From: Escherichia coli
GTDB lineage: Bacteria > Pseudomonadota > Gammaproteobacteria > Enterobacterales > Enterobacteriaceae
Direction: 5' to 3' (one strand)
Assembly (NCBI RefSeq): GCF_048403405.1
Contig: NZ_CP183129.1
DNA: 64,000 nucleotides
Shown: piece by piece, positions 169-64,000 of the stretch
How positions within the stretch are numbered: the first letter of the stretch is position 1
Layout: every line of letters starts with the position of its first letter
The notes under the pieces: generated by a model
Database searches by the model: none
The model's input: only the letters and a program-made list of their open reading frames with translations
Told to the model about the DNA's origin: nothing
Translations under genes and position numbers: made by a program

Positions 169-245
<77 letters not shown>

Positions 246-279
246 TCACCGTACTGCTTTTACTTCATCAAATTTTGAT

Positions 280-356
<77 letters not shown>

Positions 357-389
357 TCACCGTACTGCTTTACTTCATCAAATTTTAAT

Positions 390-466
<77 letters not shown>

Positions 467-3148: not shown

Positions 3149-4353
3149 TAATCCACCAATAATTCCAGCGCGCGGTCAACGGCATTCACCAGCGCATCCA
3201 CATCACTCTTTGTATTATATGGCGCAAAAGAGGCGCGCAGTGTGCCGGTTACGCCTAATTCTGCCAGTAGCGGCTGAGCGCAATGCTGCCCGGCGCGCAG
3301 GGCAATACCGTACTCCGCCAGCAGCGTCACCATATCGCTGTGATGAACGCCAGCAAAATCAAAGGCCAGCAGGCTGGAATCCTGGCAGCGAAATGAGCGG
3401 AAGCCAGGACGTTTTGCCAGCGCATCTTCCGCCAGCGTTGCTAAGCTACGGCTCCAGCTTTCTGCCTGGTTGATATCGTAATCTGCCAGCCATTCCAGCG
3501 CCGCGCTTAATCCTATGACACCAGCGACATTTGGCGTTCCGGCTTCCAGTTTCCACGGCGCAGATTGAGTCGTGAAGCCGTCAAAACTCACTTCGTGAAT
3601 CATTTTGCCGCCACCCAGCCAGGGTGACATCGCTTCCAGCAGTTCTGATTTGCCATACAGCACGCCGATACCCGTCGGGCCATACAGTTTGTGACCAGAG
3701 AAAGCATAGAAATCAATATCCAGTTGCTGAACATCTGCGGGGACATGCACCGCCCCCTGAGCACCATCAACCATCACCACCATCCCGGCTGAATGAGCAA
3801 AGGTAATCGCTCGCGCCAGATCCGGGCAACCGCCAGTGACGTTCGACATTTGTCCCAGAGCAAGAATTCGACTACGAGGTGTGATCAGTTCTGGCAACAA
3901 ATCGACATCCGGCAGTCGCTGCGCATTAAGCGGCAATTTCACCACTTTGGCTCCAGTTTGTTGGGCGACCATCAGCCAGGGGACGAGGTTGGCGTGGTGT
4001 TCTGCCACGCTGACAATAATCTCATCGCCCGGTTGCAGACGTGGACGCGCATAGCATTGTGCCACCATGTTGATGGATTCAGTGGTGCCGCGCGTCCAGA
4101 CGATAGTTTTGTCATCTGGTGCATTCAGTAATTGCGCCACTTTCTCTCGTGCAGCTTCATAACGCGCGGTCAGGCGTTGGGCTTCGGCAAACTGGCTGCG
4201 ATGGACGTTTCCGGCGCTCAGGCTGTAAAACTGTCGGGTGGCTTCAACCACGGCTTCAGGTTTAAGCGCGGTCGCGGCGCTGTCGAGATAGACGCCCGCA
4301 TCCTGAAGTGCGGGAAACTGGGCGCGAAACTGTGCGGGATTAAAAACGTTCAT
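3148..4353 (-). CDS. csdA: Cysteine desulfurase / sulfinate desulfinase CsdA (PLP-dependent)
   Basis: 401 aa starting [16 protein letters not shown]; PLP-lysine motif SGHKLYGP; start set at the internal ATG (4353) preceded by RBS gaggag rather than the TTG track start at 4389. Confidence 0.9.
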
Positions 4354-43270: not shown

Positions 43271-44031
43271 GTGTTCCCCGCGCCAGCGGGGATAAACCGC
43301 GTTCAGCGTTGCTGGGCTGCGCAATGGACTGGTGTTCCCCGCGCCAGCGGGGATAAACCGCGGAGTTTTCACGGAACGCACAGCGAATTATGGTGTTCCC
43401 CGCGCCAGCGGGGATAAACCGCCGATAAATTTTCGCCCCGTTTCCAGCGCCGCGTGTTCCCCGCGCCAGCGGGGATAAACCGTTCAAACTGTAGGGATCG
43501 GCAATGGTGCCGAAGTGTTCCCCGCGCCAGCGGGGATAAACCGGGGCATTAGAATAACTTAAATGGAAAAAGAAAGTGTTCCCCGCGCCAGCGGGGATAA
43601 ACCGTCAGCCAGCACATAATTTTTATAGTCAGTATTGTGTTCCCCGCGCCAGCGGGGATAAACCGAAAGAGGTTATCGAGCGATATAACGCGTCCATGTG
43701 TTCCCCGCGCCAGCGGGGATAAACCGGTGCCTGGCGTCCATCTATTCACATGCCGCGCGTGTTCCCCGCGCCAGCGGGGATAAACCGTATTGGCGACGAT
43801 GGCATACCAGGACTACTCCGTGTTCCCCGCGCCAGCGGGGATAAACCGGCTCAGCGTCTGCTCTGGTGCCTCGCCCGTGAGTGTTCCCCGCGCCAGCGGG
43901 GATAAACCGGACCGTTACGGGCGCGTTCTTGGACTTGTTGAGTGTTCCCCACATCAGCGGGGATAAACCGGACACAGAGCGCCGCTATAGCGCCTATGCC
44001 AAGAGTTTCCCGCACCAGCGGGAATAAACCA
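43271..44031 (+). CRISPR. Type I-E CRISPR array: 13 repeats of 29 bp, 12 spacers of 32 bp (the queE-ygcE array of E. coli)
   Basis: Repeat GTGTTCCCCGCGCCAGCGGGGATAAACCG at 43271, 43332, 43393, 43454, 43515, 43576, 43637, 43698, 43759, 43820, 43881, then degenerate copies at 43942 (gtgttccccacatcagcggggataaaccg) and 44003 (gagtttcccgcaccagcgggaataaacca); exact 61-bp period. Confidence 0.97.
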
Positions 44032-59726: not shown

Positions 59727-60461
59727 ATGTCCAAACTCGATCTAAACGCCCTGAACGAACTGCCGAAGGTAGATCGCATTCTGGCGCTGGCGGAAACTAA
59801 CGCCGAACTGGAAAAACTGGACGCTGAAGGCCGCGTTGCTTGGGCGCTGGATAATCTGCCCGGTGAATATGTACTTTCTTCTAGCTTTGGCATTCAGGCG
59901 GCGGTGAGCCTGCATCTGGTGAATCATATTCGCCCGGATATTCCAGTGATCCTCACCGATACCGGTTATCTGTTCCCGGAAACCTACCGCTTTATTGACG
60001 AGTTAACGGACAAACTCAAGCTCAACCTGAAAGTGTACCGTGCTACCGAAAGCGCGGCCTGGCAGGAAGCACGCTACGGCAAACTGTGGGAACAGGGCGT
60101 TGAAGGCATTGAAAAGTACAATGACATCAACAAAGTCGAACCGATGAACCGGGCGCTGAAAGAACTTAACGCGCAAACCTGGTTTGCTGGCCTGCGCCGT
60201 GAACAATCCGGCAGCCGCGCCAATTTACCGGTGCTGGCAATTCAGCGTGGCGTATTTAAAGTGCTGCCGATTATCGACTGGGATAACCGAACTATTTATC
60301 AGTACCTGCAAAAACATGGCCTGAAATATCACCCATTATGGGACGAAGGATATTTATCGGTGGGCGATACCCATACAACCCGTAAATGGGAACCCGGCAT
60401 GGCGGAAGAAGAAACGCGTTTCTTTGGCTTAAAAAGGGAATGTGGGTTACACGAAGGGTAA
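59727..60461 (+). CDS. cysH: Phosphoadenosine phosphosulfate (PAPS) reductase
   Basis: 244 aa [36 protein letters not shown]...; the track ORF begins upstream inside the REP / cysI 3' end. Confidence 0.96.
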
Positions 60462-60479
60462 ATATTGCCGGATAAATTA

Positions 60480-60517
60480 AACGCCTCTGTCAGAAATGAT
60501 GGGGGCGTTTTTATTTT
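60480..60517 (+). terminator. Candidate cysH intrinsic terminator
   Basis: aacgcc...ggcgtt stem with a long loop followed by tttttatttt. Confidence 0.4.
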
Positions 60518-60725
60518 GCGAGCAGCATTCCGGCATTTAAAGGTGAACATCGCAGGGAGAATTAACAGGTATAGAATGGAGTTGGGTGCTTGAGGCTGTC
60601 TGGCGTTAAGCATTCGCGAGGTTCCAGATGGACAAAAGCCCCAGGCGATATTTCTATCAACCTGAGGCCAGCGTTCGAACCTAAGCAATTCGAATGTTAG
60701 TCTCTTCTTTGCAGGGAGGCAAGAC

Positions 60726-60878
60726 ATGCTGACAAAATATGCCCTTGTGGCAATCATCGTACTGTGTTGTACAGTACTGGGATTCACGCTGATGGTAGGC
60801 GACTCGTTGTGTGAGTTGAGTATCAGAGAACGTGGTATGGAGTTTAAGGCAGTTCTCGCTTACGAATCGAAGAAGTAG
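60726..60878 (+). CDS. Hok-family type I toxin (50-aa small membrane protein), part of a hok/sok-like locus
   Basis: [53 protein letters not shown]: N-terminal TM helix plus conserved Hok motif DSLCE...R...[11 protein letters not shown]; below the 60-aa cutoff of the ORF track; followed by hairpin cgcgggg gtaaaa ccccgcg (60885-60904) and a T run; K-12 carries a hok/sok-type locus (sokX) at this position. Confidence 0.8.
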
Positions 60879-61115
60879 CCACCACGCGGGGGTAAAACCC
60901 CGCGTATTGGATTGTGATGGTTTGGTCTCCTGCACCCTTTTTTAATTTATATTGTTTATGTAAATATTATGCCTATGTTTATTATTCATATATATTACGG
61001 ATGAAAATTATTTGATTATTCATAATGTAAATATTTTATTGAACGATATATATCACAGATAATTTTTAATATATGCGTAAATATCCTTTAAGTTTTACTG
61101 AAGGATAAAAACATT

Positions 61116-63773
61116 GTGACTTTCTTTGATTTCTGGGGAAAAACCCGACGTGGCGAGAAAGAGGGTGGTGACGACTATCACCTTCTTTGCTGGCATTCGC
61201 TGGATGTAGCCGCGATGGGCTATTTAATGGTTAAAAGCAATTGCTTCGGGCTGGCTGACTATTTTCGTCAACTAGGTTTCGCTGATACGGAGCAGGCAGC
61301 ACAATTTTTCGCCTGGTTGCTGTGCTGGCACGATACTGGAAAATTTGCCCGCTCTTTTCAGCAACTTTACCTGCACCCGCAACTCAAGGTTCCGGAAAGC
61401 TCTAGAAAAAATTACGAAAAAATCTCTCATTCAACGCTGGGTTACTGGTTGTGGCACCATTATTTAAGTGAATGCGAAGAATTGCTTCCTTCATCTTCAC
61501 TCTCTCCGCGCAAACTTAAACGGGTGATAGAGATGTGGATGCCCATGACTACCGGGCATCATGGTCGCCCGCCTGACCGTATGGATGAACTGGATAATTT
61601 TCTGCCTGAAGACAAAGCCGCCGCGCGAGATTTTCTCCTTGTAATCAAGGCACTGTTTCCTCTCATCGAGATCCCCGCATTCTGGGATGATGACGATGGC
61701 GTTGAACTTTTAAAACAACTTTCCTGGTATATCTCTGCAACTGTCGTACTTGCAGACTGGACGGGATCGTCAACGCGATTTTTTCCACGCGTCGCGCAGG
61801 CAATGGATATTGAAGATTACTGGCAGAAGGCTTTAGTTCAGGCTCAAAACGCATTAACCGTCTTTCCTCCAAAAGCACAAACCGCGCCTTTCACCGGAAT
61901 TAATACGCTGTTTCCTTTTATTGAGCACCCGACACCGTTACAGCAAAAGGTGCTGGATCTGGATATCAGCCAGCCTGGGCCACAGTTATTTATTCTGGAG
62001 GATGTGACTGGCGCAGGTAAAACAGAAGCGGCGCTTATCCTGGCCCACAGGTTGATGGCTGCGGGGAAAGCACAGGGTTTGTTTTTTGGCCTGCCAACAA
62101 TGGCAACGGCCAATGCCATGTACGATCGGCTGGTAAAAACCTGGCTTGCTTTCTATTCGCCAGAATCCCGCCCCAGCCTGGTGCTGGCACACAGTGCCCG
62201 CACATTAATGGACCGCTTTAATGAATCACTCTGGTCCGGTGATTTAGTCGGGTCAGAAGAACCGGATGAACAAGCGTTCAGTCAGGGATGTGCGGCCTGG
62301 TTTGCCGACAGTAACAAGAAGGCGTTGCTGGCTGAAATTGGCGTCGGCACGCTGGATCAGGCGATGATGGCGGTGATGCCGTTTAAACATAATAATCTGC
62401 GGCTTCTGGGACTGAGTAACAAAATCCTGCTGGCTGATGAGATCCATGCCTGTGACGCTTACATGTCGTGCATTCTTGAAGGATTGATTGAGCGGCAGGC
62501 GCGTGGCGGAAACAGCGTTATTTTGCTTTCTGCCACGTTATCTCAACAGCAGCGCGACAAACTCGTTGCTGCCTTTGCGCGTGGTGCAGAGGGTCAGCAA
62601 GAAGCTCCGTTCCTGGAAAAGGATGATTACCCCTGGCTGACGCACGTTACGAAATCGGATGTGCATTCACACCGGGTAGCAACGCGCAAAGACGTTGAGC
62701 GTAGCGTGAGCGTGGGTTGGCTTCATAGCGAACAAGAGTGTATTGCGCGTATCGAATCGGCGGTAAGTCAGGGGAAATGCATCGCCTGGATCCGGAATTC
62801 TGTCGATGATGCTATTAAAGTTCATCGTCAGTTGCTTGCCCGCGGCGTCATTCCTGCTTCCAGCCTTTCTCTGTTTCATAGCCGCTTTGCTTTTAGCGAT
62901 CGCCAGCGAATTGAAACGGAAACGCTGGCACGCTTCGGTAAAGAAGATAGCTCACAGCGTGCCGGAAAAGTCCTCATTTGTACTCAGGTCTTAGAGTCGA
63001 GCGTTGATTGCGATATGGACGAAATGATTTCCGACCTGGCCCCTGTTGATTTGCTGATCCAGCGAGCGGGGCGATTACAGCGGCATATCCGCGATATTAA
63101 TGGTCAGTTAAAGCGTGACGGAAAAGACGAGCGTTCTCCTCCTGAATTGCTGATTCTGGCCCCCGTCTGGGACGACGCTCCAGGTGACGAATGGTTCGGC
63201 AGTGCCATGCGTAACAGTGCATATGTCTATCCCGATCATGGACGAATCTGGCTGACGCAGCGTGTACTGCGTGAGCAAGGCGCGATTCAAATGCCACACG
63301 CAGCCCGCCTTCTTATTGAATCAGTCTACGGTGAGGACGTGGTAATGCCGGAAGGATTTGCCCGCAGCGAGCAGGAACAAGTGGGCAAATATTACTGCGA
63401 TCGCGCAATGGCTAAAAAGTTTGTGCTGAACTTCAGGCCCGGCTATGCCGCCAATATCAACGATTACCTCCCGGAAAAGCTGTCGACACGTCTGGCTGAG
63501 GAGTCTGTTTCCCTGTGGCTGGCTACCTGTATTGACGGTGTGGTGAAGCCTTATGCCACCGGTGCTCACGCATGGGAAATGAGCGTTGTCAGAGTGCGTC
63601 GAAGCTGGTGGAAAAAACATTGCGATGAGTTTTCTTTACTGGAAGGGGAAGCGTTCAGGCAGTGGTGCGTTGAACAGCGGCAAGATCCGGAGATGGCAAA
63701 TGTGATTTTAGTTACCGATGACGAAAGTTGCGGGTATTCGGCTAGGGAGGGATTGATTGGTAAGGTTGATTGA
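61116..63773 (+). CDS. cas3: Cas3 (type I-E CRISPR-associated HD nuclease / SF2 helicase), non-K-12 allele
   Basis: 885 aa; HD motifs (HSLDVAA, WHDTGKF), helicase motif I TGAGKTEA, motif II DEIH, motif III SATL, motif VI QRAGRLQRH; GTG start; sits directly downstream of cysH as in E. coli; N-terminal sequence differs from the K-12 Cas3 I recall (MEPFKYICHYWGKS...). Confidence 0.9.
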   Translation: MTFFDFWGKTRRGEKEGGDDYHLLCWHSLDVAAMGYLMVKSNCFGLADYFRQLGFADTEQAAQFFAWLLCWHDTGKFARSFQQLYLHPQLKVPESSRKNYEKISHSTLGYWLWHHYLSECEELLPSSSLSPRKLKRVIEMWMPMTTGHHGRPPDRMDELDNFLPEDKAAARDFLLVIKALFPLIEIPAFWDDDDGVELLKQLSWYISATVVLADWTGSSTRFFPRVAQAMDIEDYWQKALVQAQNALTVFPPKAQTAPFTGINTLFPFIEHPTPLQQKVLDLDISQPGPQLFILEDVTGAGKTEAALILAHRLMAAGKAQGLFFGLPTMATANAMYDRLVKTWLAFYSPESRPSLVLAHSARTLMDRFNESLWSGDLVGSEEPDEQAFSQGCAAWFADSNKKALLAEIGVGTLDQAMMAVMPFKHNNLRLLGLSNKILLADEIHACDAYMSCILEGLIERQARGGNSVILLSATLSQQQRDKLVAAFARGAEGQQEAPFLEKDDYPWLTHVTKSDVHSHRVATRKDVERSVSVGWLHSEQECIARIESAVSQGKCIAWIRNSVDDAIKVHRQLLARGVIPASSLSLFHSRFAFSDRQRIETETLARFGKEDSSQRAGKVLICTQVLESSVDCDMDEMISDLAPVDLLIQRAGRLQRHIRDINGQLKRDGKDERSPPELLILAPVWDDAPGDEWFGSAMRNSAYVYPDHGRIWLTQRVLREQGAIQMPHAARLLIESVYGEDVVMPEGFARSEQEQVGKYYCDRAMAKKFVLNFRPGYAANINDYLPEKLSTRLAEESVSLWLATCIDGVVKPYATGAHAWEMSVVRVRRSWWKKHCDEFSLLEGEAFRQWCVEQRQDPEMANVILVTDDESCGYSAREGLIGKVD

Positions 63774-63777
63774 GATG

Positions 63778-63801
63778 CCCTGGAGTCGGAGGACTCCAGG
63801 G
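63778..63801 (+). other. GC-rich hairpin 5 nt after the cas3 stop codon
   Basis: ccctggagtc ggag gactccaggg, 10-bp perfect stem with 4-nt loop, no following U run. Confidence 0.6.
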
Positions 63802-63889
63802 CCTATCCCCGCTGACGCGGGGAACGGAATAACAGAGTAACAGGAGCTACCTCTTACTGCTGGTTTATCCCTACGTTAATAGGGAAGAA
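63799..63889 (-). repeat. Two degenerate CRISPR-repeat-like units in inverted orientation, 62 bp apart
   Basis: gggcctatccccgctgacgcggggaacgg (63799-63827) matches the reverse complement of the array repeat at 24 of 29 positions with the stem-loop preserved; ctggtttatccctacgttaatagggaaga (63861-63889) matches at 17 of 29, concentrated at both ends; spacing close to the 61-bp array period. Confidence 0.5.
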
Positions 63890-64000
63890 GGGAGTATAGC
63901 ATCTACTGAGATGAATTTGTTTTGATATTTAATGTGAACTTCCTCTTACTGCCTTTACATTTTTCTATGCGAGGAGTAATCTTTGCTCAGTTTGGGAGAG

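Follow-up and report, generated by a model that had tools for sequence, protein, structure and literature searches.

What does a genome encode between cas3 and casA when that space holds pieces of a CRISPR array turned the other way round? The question is raised by a stretch of 64,000 nucleotides of Escherichia coli DNA (contig NZ_CP183129.1), hereafter the window, in which a GC-rich hairpin and two degenerate repeat units follow the type I-E cas3 gene in inverted orientation. The first-pass annotation of this DNA offered three explanations: a fossil array, a recombination scar from the exchange of cas cassettes, or a retained Cas6e-binding hairpin with a regulatory role. We consider it likely that the element is a degenerate but functional mini-CRISPR of the creA/creR kind, which would give rise to a regulatory RNA resembling a CRISPR RNA (crRNA) from the minus strand, antisense to cas3.

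The segment searched covers window positions 63300-64000, over which E. coli strain TUM14771 is 100% identical. Only the first 227 bp of the cas3-casA intergenic region lie inside the window, and the remainder was read from 28.7 kb of TUM14771 around the locus (L001, whose coordinates are those of the window minus 49299). In order, the genes and regions here are cysJIH, hok/sok, cas3 on the plus strand, a 465-bp intergenic region, casA-casB-cas7-cas5-cas6e-cas1-cas2 and a CRISPR array. The array downstream of cas2 has the repeat GTGTTCCCCGCGCCAGCGGGGATAAACCG, with which all units below were compared. The intergenic region in its present form is referred to as type A.

The inverted mini-array and its guide

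The GC hairpin, CCCTGGAGTC-GGAG-GACTCCAGGG, spans positions 63778-63801 and begins 5 nt past the cas3 stop codon (TGA, 63771-63773). Its 10-bp stem was already recognized by the first-pass annotation; it extends to 11 bp once the pair G63777-C63802 is included (63777..63802, 4-nt loop). Unit 1 (63799-63827, GGGCCTATCCCCGCTGACGCGGGGAACGG) matches the reverse complement of the strain's own repeat. The previously reported orientation and the intact stem-loop (CCCCGC-TGAC-GCGGGG) are both borne out, whereas the score is 23/29 and not the 24/29 given earlier. Chance accounts poorly for this likeness: the runner-up in the same orientation across the whole 64 kb reaches 19/29, making unit 1 a clear outlier and the best match in the window outside the arrays. 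The second, more decayed unit likewise lies where it had been placed, 62 bp beyond unit 1 (unit 2, 63861-63889, TGGTTTATCCCTACGTTAATAGGGAAGAA), and matches the repeat at 17/29. This score is not significant on its own, as dozens of sites in the window reach 16-17.

Read on the minus strand, the two units become the ends of a small repeat-spacer-repeat structure, separate from the CRISPR array and within an intergenic stretch of the cas locus. The degenerate upstream repeat, psiR-up (unit 2, 63861..63889), reads TTCTTCCCTATTAACGTAGGG/ATAAACCA. It is followed by psiS, a spacer-like guide of 33 nt (63828..63860, GCAGTAAGAGGTAGCTCCTGTTACTCTGTTATT), and by the degenerate downstream repeat, psiR-down (unit 1, 63799..63827), which reads CCGTTCCCCGCGTCAGCGGGG/ATAGGCCC. 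The slash marks the Cas6e cut point in the canonical type I-E repeat. The GC hairpin, also taken in the minus sense, stands directly 3' of the mini-array. The structure differs from a canonical array in that its units score only as given above, are unlike each other, and enclose a spacer that matches the host's own intergenic region. The flank of psiS itself reads CCA, which is no protospacer-adjacent motif (PAM), so the mini-array is not targeted by its own guide.

The degeneration of the two repeats is asymmetric. In psiR-up the 5' handle is matched at 7 of 8 positions, and a hairpin of 6-7 bp (TCCCTAT pairing with GTAGGGA) is kept through paired substitutions. In psiR-down the part that would supply the 3' handle is matched at 18 of 21 positions and has a 7-bp hairpin, while the final 8 nt, which would be discarded on processing, are matched at 5 of 8. 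The same pattern, with the handle better kept than the rest, occurs in eight other variants of the mini-array that are described below. On this comparison, the kept parts are precisely those that would remain in one mature crRNA, and the parts that processing would discard are the degenerate ones.

A predicted extended -10 promoter (TGCTATACT in the minus sense, 63893..63901, minus strand) lies immediately upstream of psiR-up. Its position is conserved: in 9/9 variants other than that of K-12, a TGnTAnnn[T/A] motif stands 11 or 12 nt before psiR-up begins. Folding prediction gives the minus-strand RNA three hairpins (-60.7 kcal/mol, z = -7.0), and five stem pairs of this structure are altered on both sides among the variants. 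The covariation score of 0.294 exceeds those of all 500 shuffles and all slid controls, although the sequences are related by descent and the shuffle count is therefore not a probability.

The GC hairpin takes part in this pattern. Across the nine variants its position directly 3' of the downstream unit is kept while its sequence varies, and four of its stem pairs are altered on both sides; the hairpin of strain 06-00048 (L003, variant C3) is a one-mismatch intermediate. All of its wobble pairs are G.U in the minus sense and would be A.C if read in the sense of cas3. In Chimaeribacter, Brenneria and Pectobacterium, too, a similar hairpin lies at the downstream unit or no more than ~20 nt away. 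We take the hairpin to be the 3' structure of the antisense transcript, and a role in termination is a guess.

The target site and a 32-codon reading frame

The guide has a partial match 60 bp from the spacer (63920..63955, minus strand). The target runs from 63952 to 63920, next to an AAG PAM at 63955 to 63953, and matches spacer positions 1-11, 13-14, 16-17 and 21-23 (19/33), with GCAGTAAGAGG as the seed. AAG is the canonical type I-E PAM. This site is the single combined match to seed and PAM in the window and in the 28.7 kb of L001. When the spacer was shuffled, 0/20000 sequences equalled the seed match with an interference-type PAM within the 465-bp region.

The match is proximal to the seed and lies beside a predicted promoter facing casA (63954..63982, plus strand), which comprises a -35 element TTTACA (63954-63959), a 17-nt spacer and a -10 element TAATCT (63977-63982). 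The reverse-complemented PAM overlaps the -35-like TTTACA. A TAnnnT hexamer is found 24-26 nt from the reverse-complemented PAM in 6/6 of the variants that carry the open reading frame (ORF) described next.

Past the end of the window, 135 nt downstream of the PAM, starts a 32-codon ORF (L001 14789-14887, equal to window 64088-64186) that is preceded by the Shine-Dalgarno sequence AAGAGGG and encodes MEEKTSRCKRLFCRLMVRFGKRLSVSFQLSVN. casA (L001 14940) begins 52 nt after it. Homologues of the peptide are 75% identical in Klebsiella spallanzanii and 41% identical in Atlantibacter. An exhaustive profile search of 1.84 billion representatives yielded four related clusters, of which one is a frameshifted fusion, and the ORF is located between cas3 and casA on every contig examined. 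Compared with the Klebsiella-type homologues (L017, L073, L076, L077), synonymous divergence is near saturation (0.82-0.92) while non-synonymous divergence is 0.12-0.18, giving a non-synonymous to synonymous ratio (pN/pS) of 0.14-0.21. The ratio is 0.39 against the Atlantibacter homologue. Judged by these substitution patterns, the ORF is a genuine coding gene under purifying selection. Analysed together with its place behind the target, it is a candidate for a Cascade-repressed toxin (CreT). AlphaFold2 models the peptide as a single helix (predicted local distance difference test score, pLDDT, 85). A tblastn search of the peptide against plasmids returned a chance match only.

Klebsiella indica has a short cas3-casA region of 151 bp, without a mini-array, in which only the 3' two-thirds of the ORF are left (L013 4289-4357, ICRLMIHLGNKLTVSFQLSVR*). 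It looks like the trace of one deletion that took the guide and the start of the toxin together.

Transcription, Cas6e processing, Cascade binding, repression and toxicity at this locus are what we infer from its sequence, in the following order. The extended -10 promoter immediately upstream of psiR-up would fire, Cas6e would cleave after each repeat hairpin, and the resulting guide, consisting of ATAAACCA, the 33-nt spacer and CCGUUCCCCGCGUCAGCGGGG, would be loaded into Cascade. The guide would pair in part with the site 60 bp away, through its seed and a few further bases, where the AAG PAM abuts the -35 element. Because the pairing is only partial, Cascade would bind without licensing cleavage by Cas3, and the casA-facing promoter would be repressed. 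This promoter would drive the 32-codon ORF and probably casABCDE as well, because the scan of the intergenic region revealed no terminator-like site between the ORF and casA. Such a module would make Cascade regulate itself and would penalise its loss. The 3'-terminal structure of the antisense transcript would be formed by the GC hairpin.

The state of the cas genes bears on this proposal. cas3 (61073..63773, plus strand) has a +1 T insertion at codon 8; the extra T sits in the T-run of that codon (window 61073-61120, AAGTTTTAC versus AAGTTTAC in O157). An in-frame GTG at 61116, 14 codons downstream, restarts the long ORF and gives a possible Cas3 product of 885 aa. RefSeq labels cas3 as 'frameshifted' in TUM14771 and in three other genomes that share the type A intergenic region, and the same +1 frameshift at codon 8 is found in 4/4 type A genomes checked. 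In each of these four, casA and casB are annotated as intact, and in TUM14771 so is every gene from casA to cas2. A frameshifted cas3 next to intact Cascade genes fits a module that guards Cascade and not Cas3, within the limits that type A is a single clonal lineage and that the GTG restart could still permit expression of Cas3.

The window holds other features as well. A second type I-E array, with the repeat of the one downstream of cas2, lies at window 43271-44031, with 13 repeats in plus orientation and an AT-rich leader upstream; its final two repeats are degenerate, and it was missed by Tandem Repeats Finder. A hok/sok type I toxin-antitoxin locus occupies window 60584-60878 between cysH and cas3, with an Rfam sok match at 60584-60741 (111.7 bits) and a Hok/Gef coding sequence annotated at L001 11427-11579. 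Three tandem tRNA-Met (CAT) genes on the minus strand at window 169-466 explain a 110-bp tandem repeat reported by Tandem Repeats Finder.

Variants and competing explanations

The type A intergenic region occurs in 6/5426 complete E. coli genomes. TUM14771, MS 69-1 and GN02461 are strains of this type. Eight more complete genomes share the hairpin and unit 1 only, within other long regions classified as types B and C (variants C3 and C4). In the common O157-like allele, the cas3-casA region is 97 bp long and lacks such an element. cas3 and casA are 94-98% identical across these E. coli strains, and the difference is confined to the intergenic region between them. Beyond E. coli, a Cas7e scan of species-representative genomes returned 64 loci, of which ~62 were usable, and about 27 of these have a minus-strand repeat-like unit between cas3 and casA. 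Five further variants come from outside E. coli: those of K. spallanzanii (L017) and Atlantibacter sp. (L019), two from metagenome assemblies in the European Nucleotide Archive (ENA; L073, L077), and one from a Logan assembly of a public sequencing run (L076). Two more contigs, L074 (ENA) and L075 (an NCBI genome assembly), have mostly the same neighbouring genes as L073.

All eight variants other than type A (B, C3, C4 and the five from elsewhere) have a spacer of their own, a target that co-varies with it, and an AAG or ATG PAM. Types B and C have distinct spacers of 26 and 32 nt with targets in their own intergenic regions, next to ATG and AAG PAMs, respectively. In the other five, spacers and targets are unrelated, the PAM is AAG or ATG, and position 6 is mismatched. 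At positions 6, 12 and 18, Cascade flips the base out of the duplex. In six of the eight variants, every mismatch before the end of the match falls on one of these positions; in type B the mismatches are exactly 6, 12 and 18, and in C4 they are 6 and 12. The exceptions are K. spallanzanii, with an additional mismatch at 13, and C3, with one at 14. Shuffled spacers did as well as the real one in 0/20000 cases for types A, B, C4 and the Atlantibacter variant, in 1/20000 for K. spallanzanii and in 181/20000 for the element of K-12.

Some features of the variants are particular to them. The target of types B and C lies on the plus strand and not on the minus strand. Type B (strain ECNB21-M121) encodes a 46-aa ORF downstream of its target (L002 4267-4407), with the Shine-Dalgarno sequence GAAGAGGA and a hydrophobic N-terminus (MLSIFLLQLVLSLLSKRQTKF...). 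It is unrelated to the 32-aa peptide and may be another Cascade-repressed toxin. Type C has no comparable ORF. Repeat spacings of the Enterobacterales mini-arrays cluster at ~49-50, 55 and 60-64 bp, corresponding to spacers of ~19-21, 26 and 32-35 nt; these steps of ~6 nt recall the Cascade backbone with its 6-nt periodicity (loci L035-L071, around 3730-4110). Pluralibacter gergoviae carries three units, one of them a perfect repeat, in a two-spacer mini-array (L024 3813-3951). One 7-kb contig in a metagenome-assembled genome of Collinsella sp. (L009) encodes a Cas7e that is 99% identical to the E. coli protein, and its assignment to Collinsella is probably the result of binning contamination. 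A phage-encoded mimic of the guide (Cracr-type) was considered and rejected: the handle and seed are matched together in one viral contig, but the match lies within a long phage ORF and lacks a repeat hairpin, and we attribute it to chance. The cas3-casA intergenic region had no match in the phage collection.

Could the units be nothing more than a non-functional relic of an array, or the scar of a recombination event, left to neutral decay once an inversion or an exchange of cas cassettes had taken place? Both are degenerate, neither leader nor IHF-type acquisition signals turned up, the stretch between near-identical cas3 and casA genes has been exchanged as a whole, and >99% of the E. coli genomes that carry this cas3 allele lack the element. 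Neutral decay, however, would not be expected to spare selectively the parts of a mature crRNA, to keep stems through compensatory changes, to hold promoter motifs at fixed positions in 9/9 variants, or to place a PAM-flanked seed match in each of nine independent variants when 0/20000 shuffled spacers do as well. We regard this explanation as hardly credible. The fossil array of the first-pass annotation is abandoned on these grounds; its recombination scar finds no support as such, though E. coli strains do differ only in the cas3-casA spacer region. The suggestion of a retained Cas6e-binding hairpin with a regulatory role pointed in the right direction and understated the case, since the element has the makings of a complete promoter-repeat-spacer-repeat gene with a target. 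A further possibility is that the GC hairpin and the stem-loop of unit 1 form a tandem-hairpin 3' end or terminator of the cas3 mRNA on the plus strand, so that the likeness to the repeat would be incidental. The GC hairpin does start 5 nt after the cas3 stop codon, and such a hairpin is found at or within ~20 nt of the downstream repeat in Klebsiella and Atlantibacter as well as in the three genera named above. This too seems improbable: the plus strand has no U-tract, the stem wobbles are G.U pairs in the minus sense only and A.C mismatches in the sense of cas3, and unit 2, the spacer-target match and the PAM would be left unexplained.

A functional mini-array might also do without a toxin. 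It would then be a pure autoregulator of Cascade (CreR), with the ORF as a leader, an upstream ORF or a harmless small protein. In favour of this, the ORF ends shortly before casA with no terminator-like site between them, so that the targeted promoter probably feeds the cas operon; CreR of the Salmonella type I-E system acts in this manner and no toxin was identified there (10.1101/2023.03.10.532045); and the peptide is not hydrophobic like the classic small membrane toxins and has no family match. Yet strong purifying selection on the peptide (pN/pS ~0.15, with synonymous sites near saturation) is unusual for a leader, and an ORF of the same size, placed and directed alike with respect to CreA, is in Citrobacter rodentium a translated toxin (PMC12055562). 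The truncated remnant in K. indica, left without a mini-array, also suits the joint loss of a toxin-antitoxin pair. We consider a toxin-free regulator rather unlikely. Several observations nevertheless weigh against a working mini-array that represses a toxin. The hairpin of psiR-up (CCCTA/TAGGG) departs from the canonical Cas6e substrate, and an Rfam scan of 60000-64000 at E<=10 placed no CRISPR-DR or other family over either unit. A consensus scan of the intergenic region gave no sigma-70 promoter or terminator above threshold; the casA-facing promoter agrees with the consensus at 8/12 positions, below the 9/12 rule of the scan. Because of this outcome, both promoter assignments rest on positional conservation across variants, and the promoters of the mini-array and of casA are predictions. 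No U-tract or T-run follows the GC hairpin on either strand, so it does not qualify as a terminator. NCBIfam, PADLOC and PHROGs had no match to the 32-aa peptide, a full-text literature search for stretches of its sequence turned up no paper, and the ORF could alternatively be a leader peptide.

Taking the functional mini-array as the preferred reading, a broader proposal can be made, in which we have about equal grounds for belief and doubt. A rare E. coli lineage would hold a complete CreTA addiction module with an unannotated family of basic 32-aa toxins, which is also present in Klebsiella and Atlantibacter and is maybe the same as C. rodentium CreT. The space between cas3 and casA would be an exchangeable slot, and in this lineage the module may keep Cascade intact despite the frameshift in cas3. 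The exchange itself, part of the same evenly balanced proposal, would consist in E. coli slots that are empty or filled by type A, B, C or K-12 elements, with sets of guide, target and toxin swapped between near-identical cas operons.

Relation to known systems

The first-pass annotation had not seen such an element described, but close relatives are in print. Inverted mini-arrays between cas3 and cas8e/casA occur in ~19% of bacterial type I-E loci, including that of E. coli K-12, and target the cas8 promoter region next to an AAG PAM (Shmakov et al. 2023, PMC10120712). Our analysis confirmed the mini-array in K-12. Like that of type A, it is inverted relative to cas3, uses an AAG PAM and has its target immediately upstream of the cas promoter. 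Its upstream unit, ACCTTCCCTACTTAAGTAGGG/ATAAACCG, with the hairpin CCCTAC-TTAA-GTAGGG ahead of ATAAACCG, is homologous to psiR-up. In contrast to type A, decay has gone much further in the downstream unit of K-12, which overlaps the stop codon of cas3, there is neither a GC hairpin nor a homologue of the 32-aa ORF, and the seed match is weaker, as the shuffled spacers indicate. The K-12-type region is present in 1114/5426 complete genomes versus 6 for type A.

In Salmonella, the type I-E CreR represses PcasA 8.6-fold via E. coli Cascade (Liu et al. 2023, bioRxiv 10.1101/2023.03.10.532045). It is likewise a degenerate mini-CRISPR upstream of casA, in which psiR1 keeps the 5' handle and psiR2 the 3' handle, and it combines an AAG PAM with a partial, seed-proximal match. 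Salmonella CreR is recognised by E. coli Cascade and autorepresses PcasA. The two differ in that the Salmonella guide has 15 consecutive matches and no recognised toxin, whereas type A has 11 consecutive matches plus scattered ones and a small conserved ORF between target and casA.

The CreTA module of C. rodentium resembles type A in layout. Its cas3-casA region of 495 bp contains a translated 96-bp toxin ORF, with CreA on the opposite strand and a target over an UP element (Basta, Campbell et al. 2025, PMC12055562). The region is similarly long in type A (465 bp), and in both the strand of CreA, putative in type A, is opposite to cas3 and casA. The partial guide match in both lies just upstream of the -35 element of a casA-facing promoter, a predicted one in type A, beside a canonical type I-E PAM (ATG there, AAG in type A). 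Both have an ORF of ~96 bp downstream of the promoter, a translated toxin in one and a candidate in the other, compared by size and position alone. The C. rodentium module requires Cascade and not Cas3 (PMC12055562), and this independence from Cas3 suits the type A lineage, in which casA-casE are intact and cas3 is frameshifted.

A more distant parallel is the type I-B CreTA of Haloarcula hispanica, in which, as later reports summarise it, a crRNA-like antitoxin guides Cascade to repress the promoter of a toxin (Li et al. 2021, Science; cited in PMC12055562 and PMC8501985). In that summary the logic is the same: partial complementarity inside the cas locus makes the loss of Cascade costly. The system so described is archaeal, belongs to type I-B, lies between cas6 and cas8, and has as its toxin a tRNA-sequestering RNA, whereas the type A candidate is a basic 32-aa peptide.

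E. coli serves as the model for type I-E CRISPR, and what appeared to be junk between two of its cas genes becomes a predicted regulatory gene and a natural, genetically tractable case of Cascade-guided self-regulation or addiction. The variants, with the same cas genes, different or absent modules and co-variation of guide and target, are a ready comparative set for asking how much complementarity is needed for repression without cleavage and why variation is permitted at positions 6, 12 and 18. They also bear on whether such modules are the cause of Cascade persistence in strains that show few signs of active immunity. With its 32-aa peptides, the family described here is a candidate for a new small toxin, while the concept has already been published for K-12, Salmonella and Citrobacter. 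On every feature that can be tested in sequence, the type A locus fits the published CreA, CreR and CreTA elements; its kind is known, and the E. coli allele is rare.

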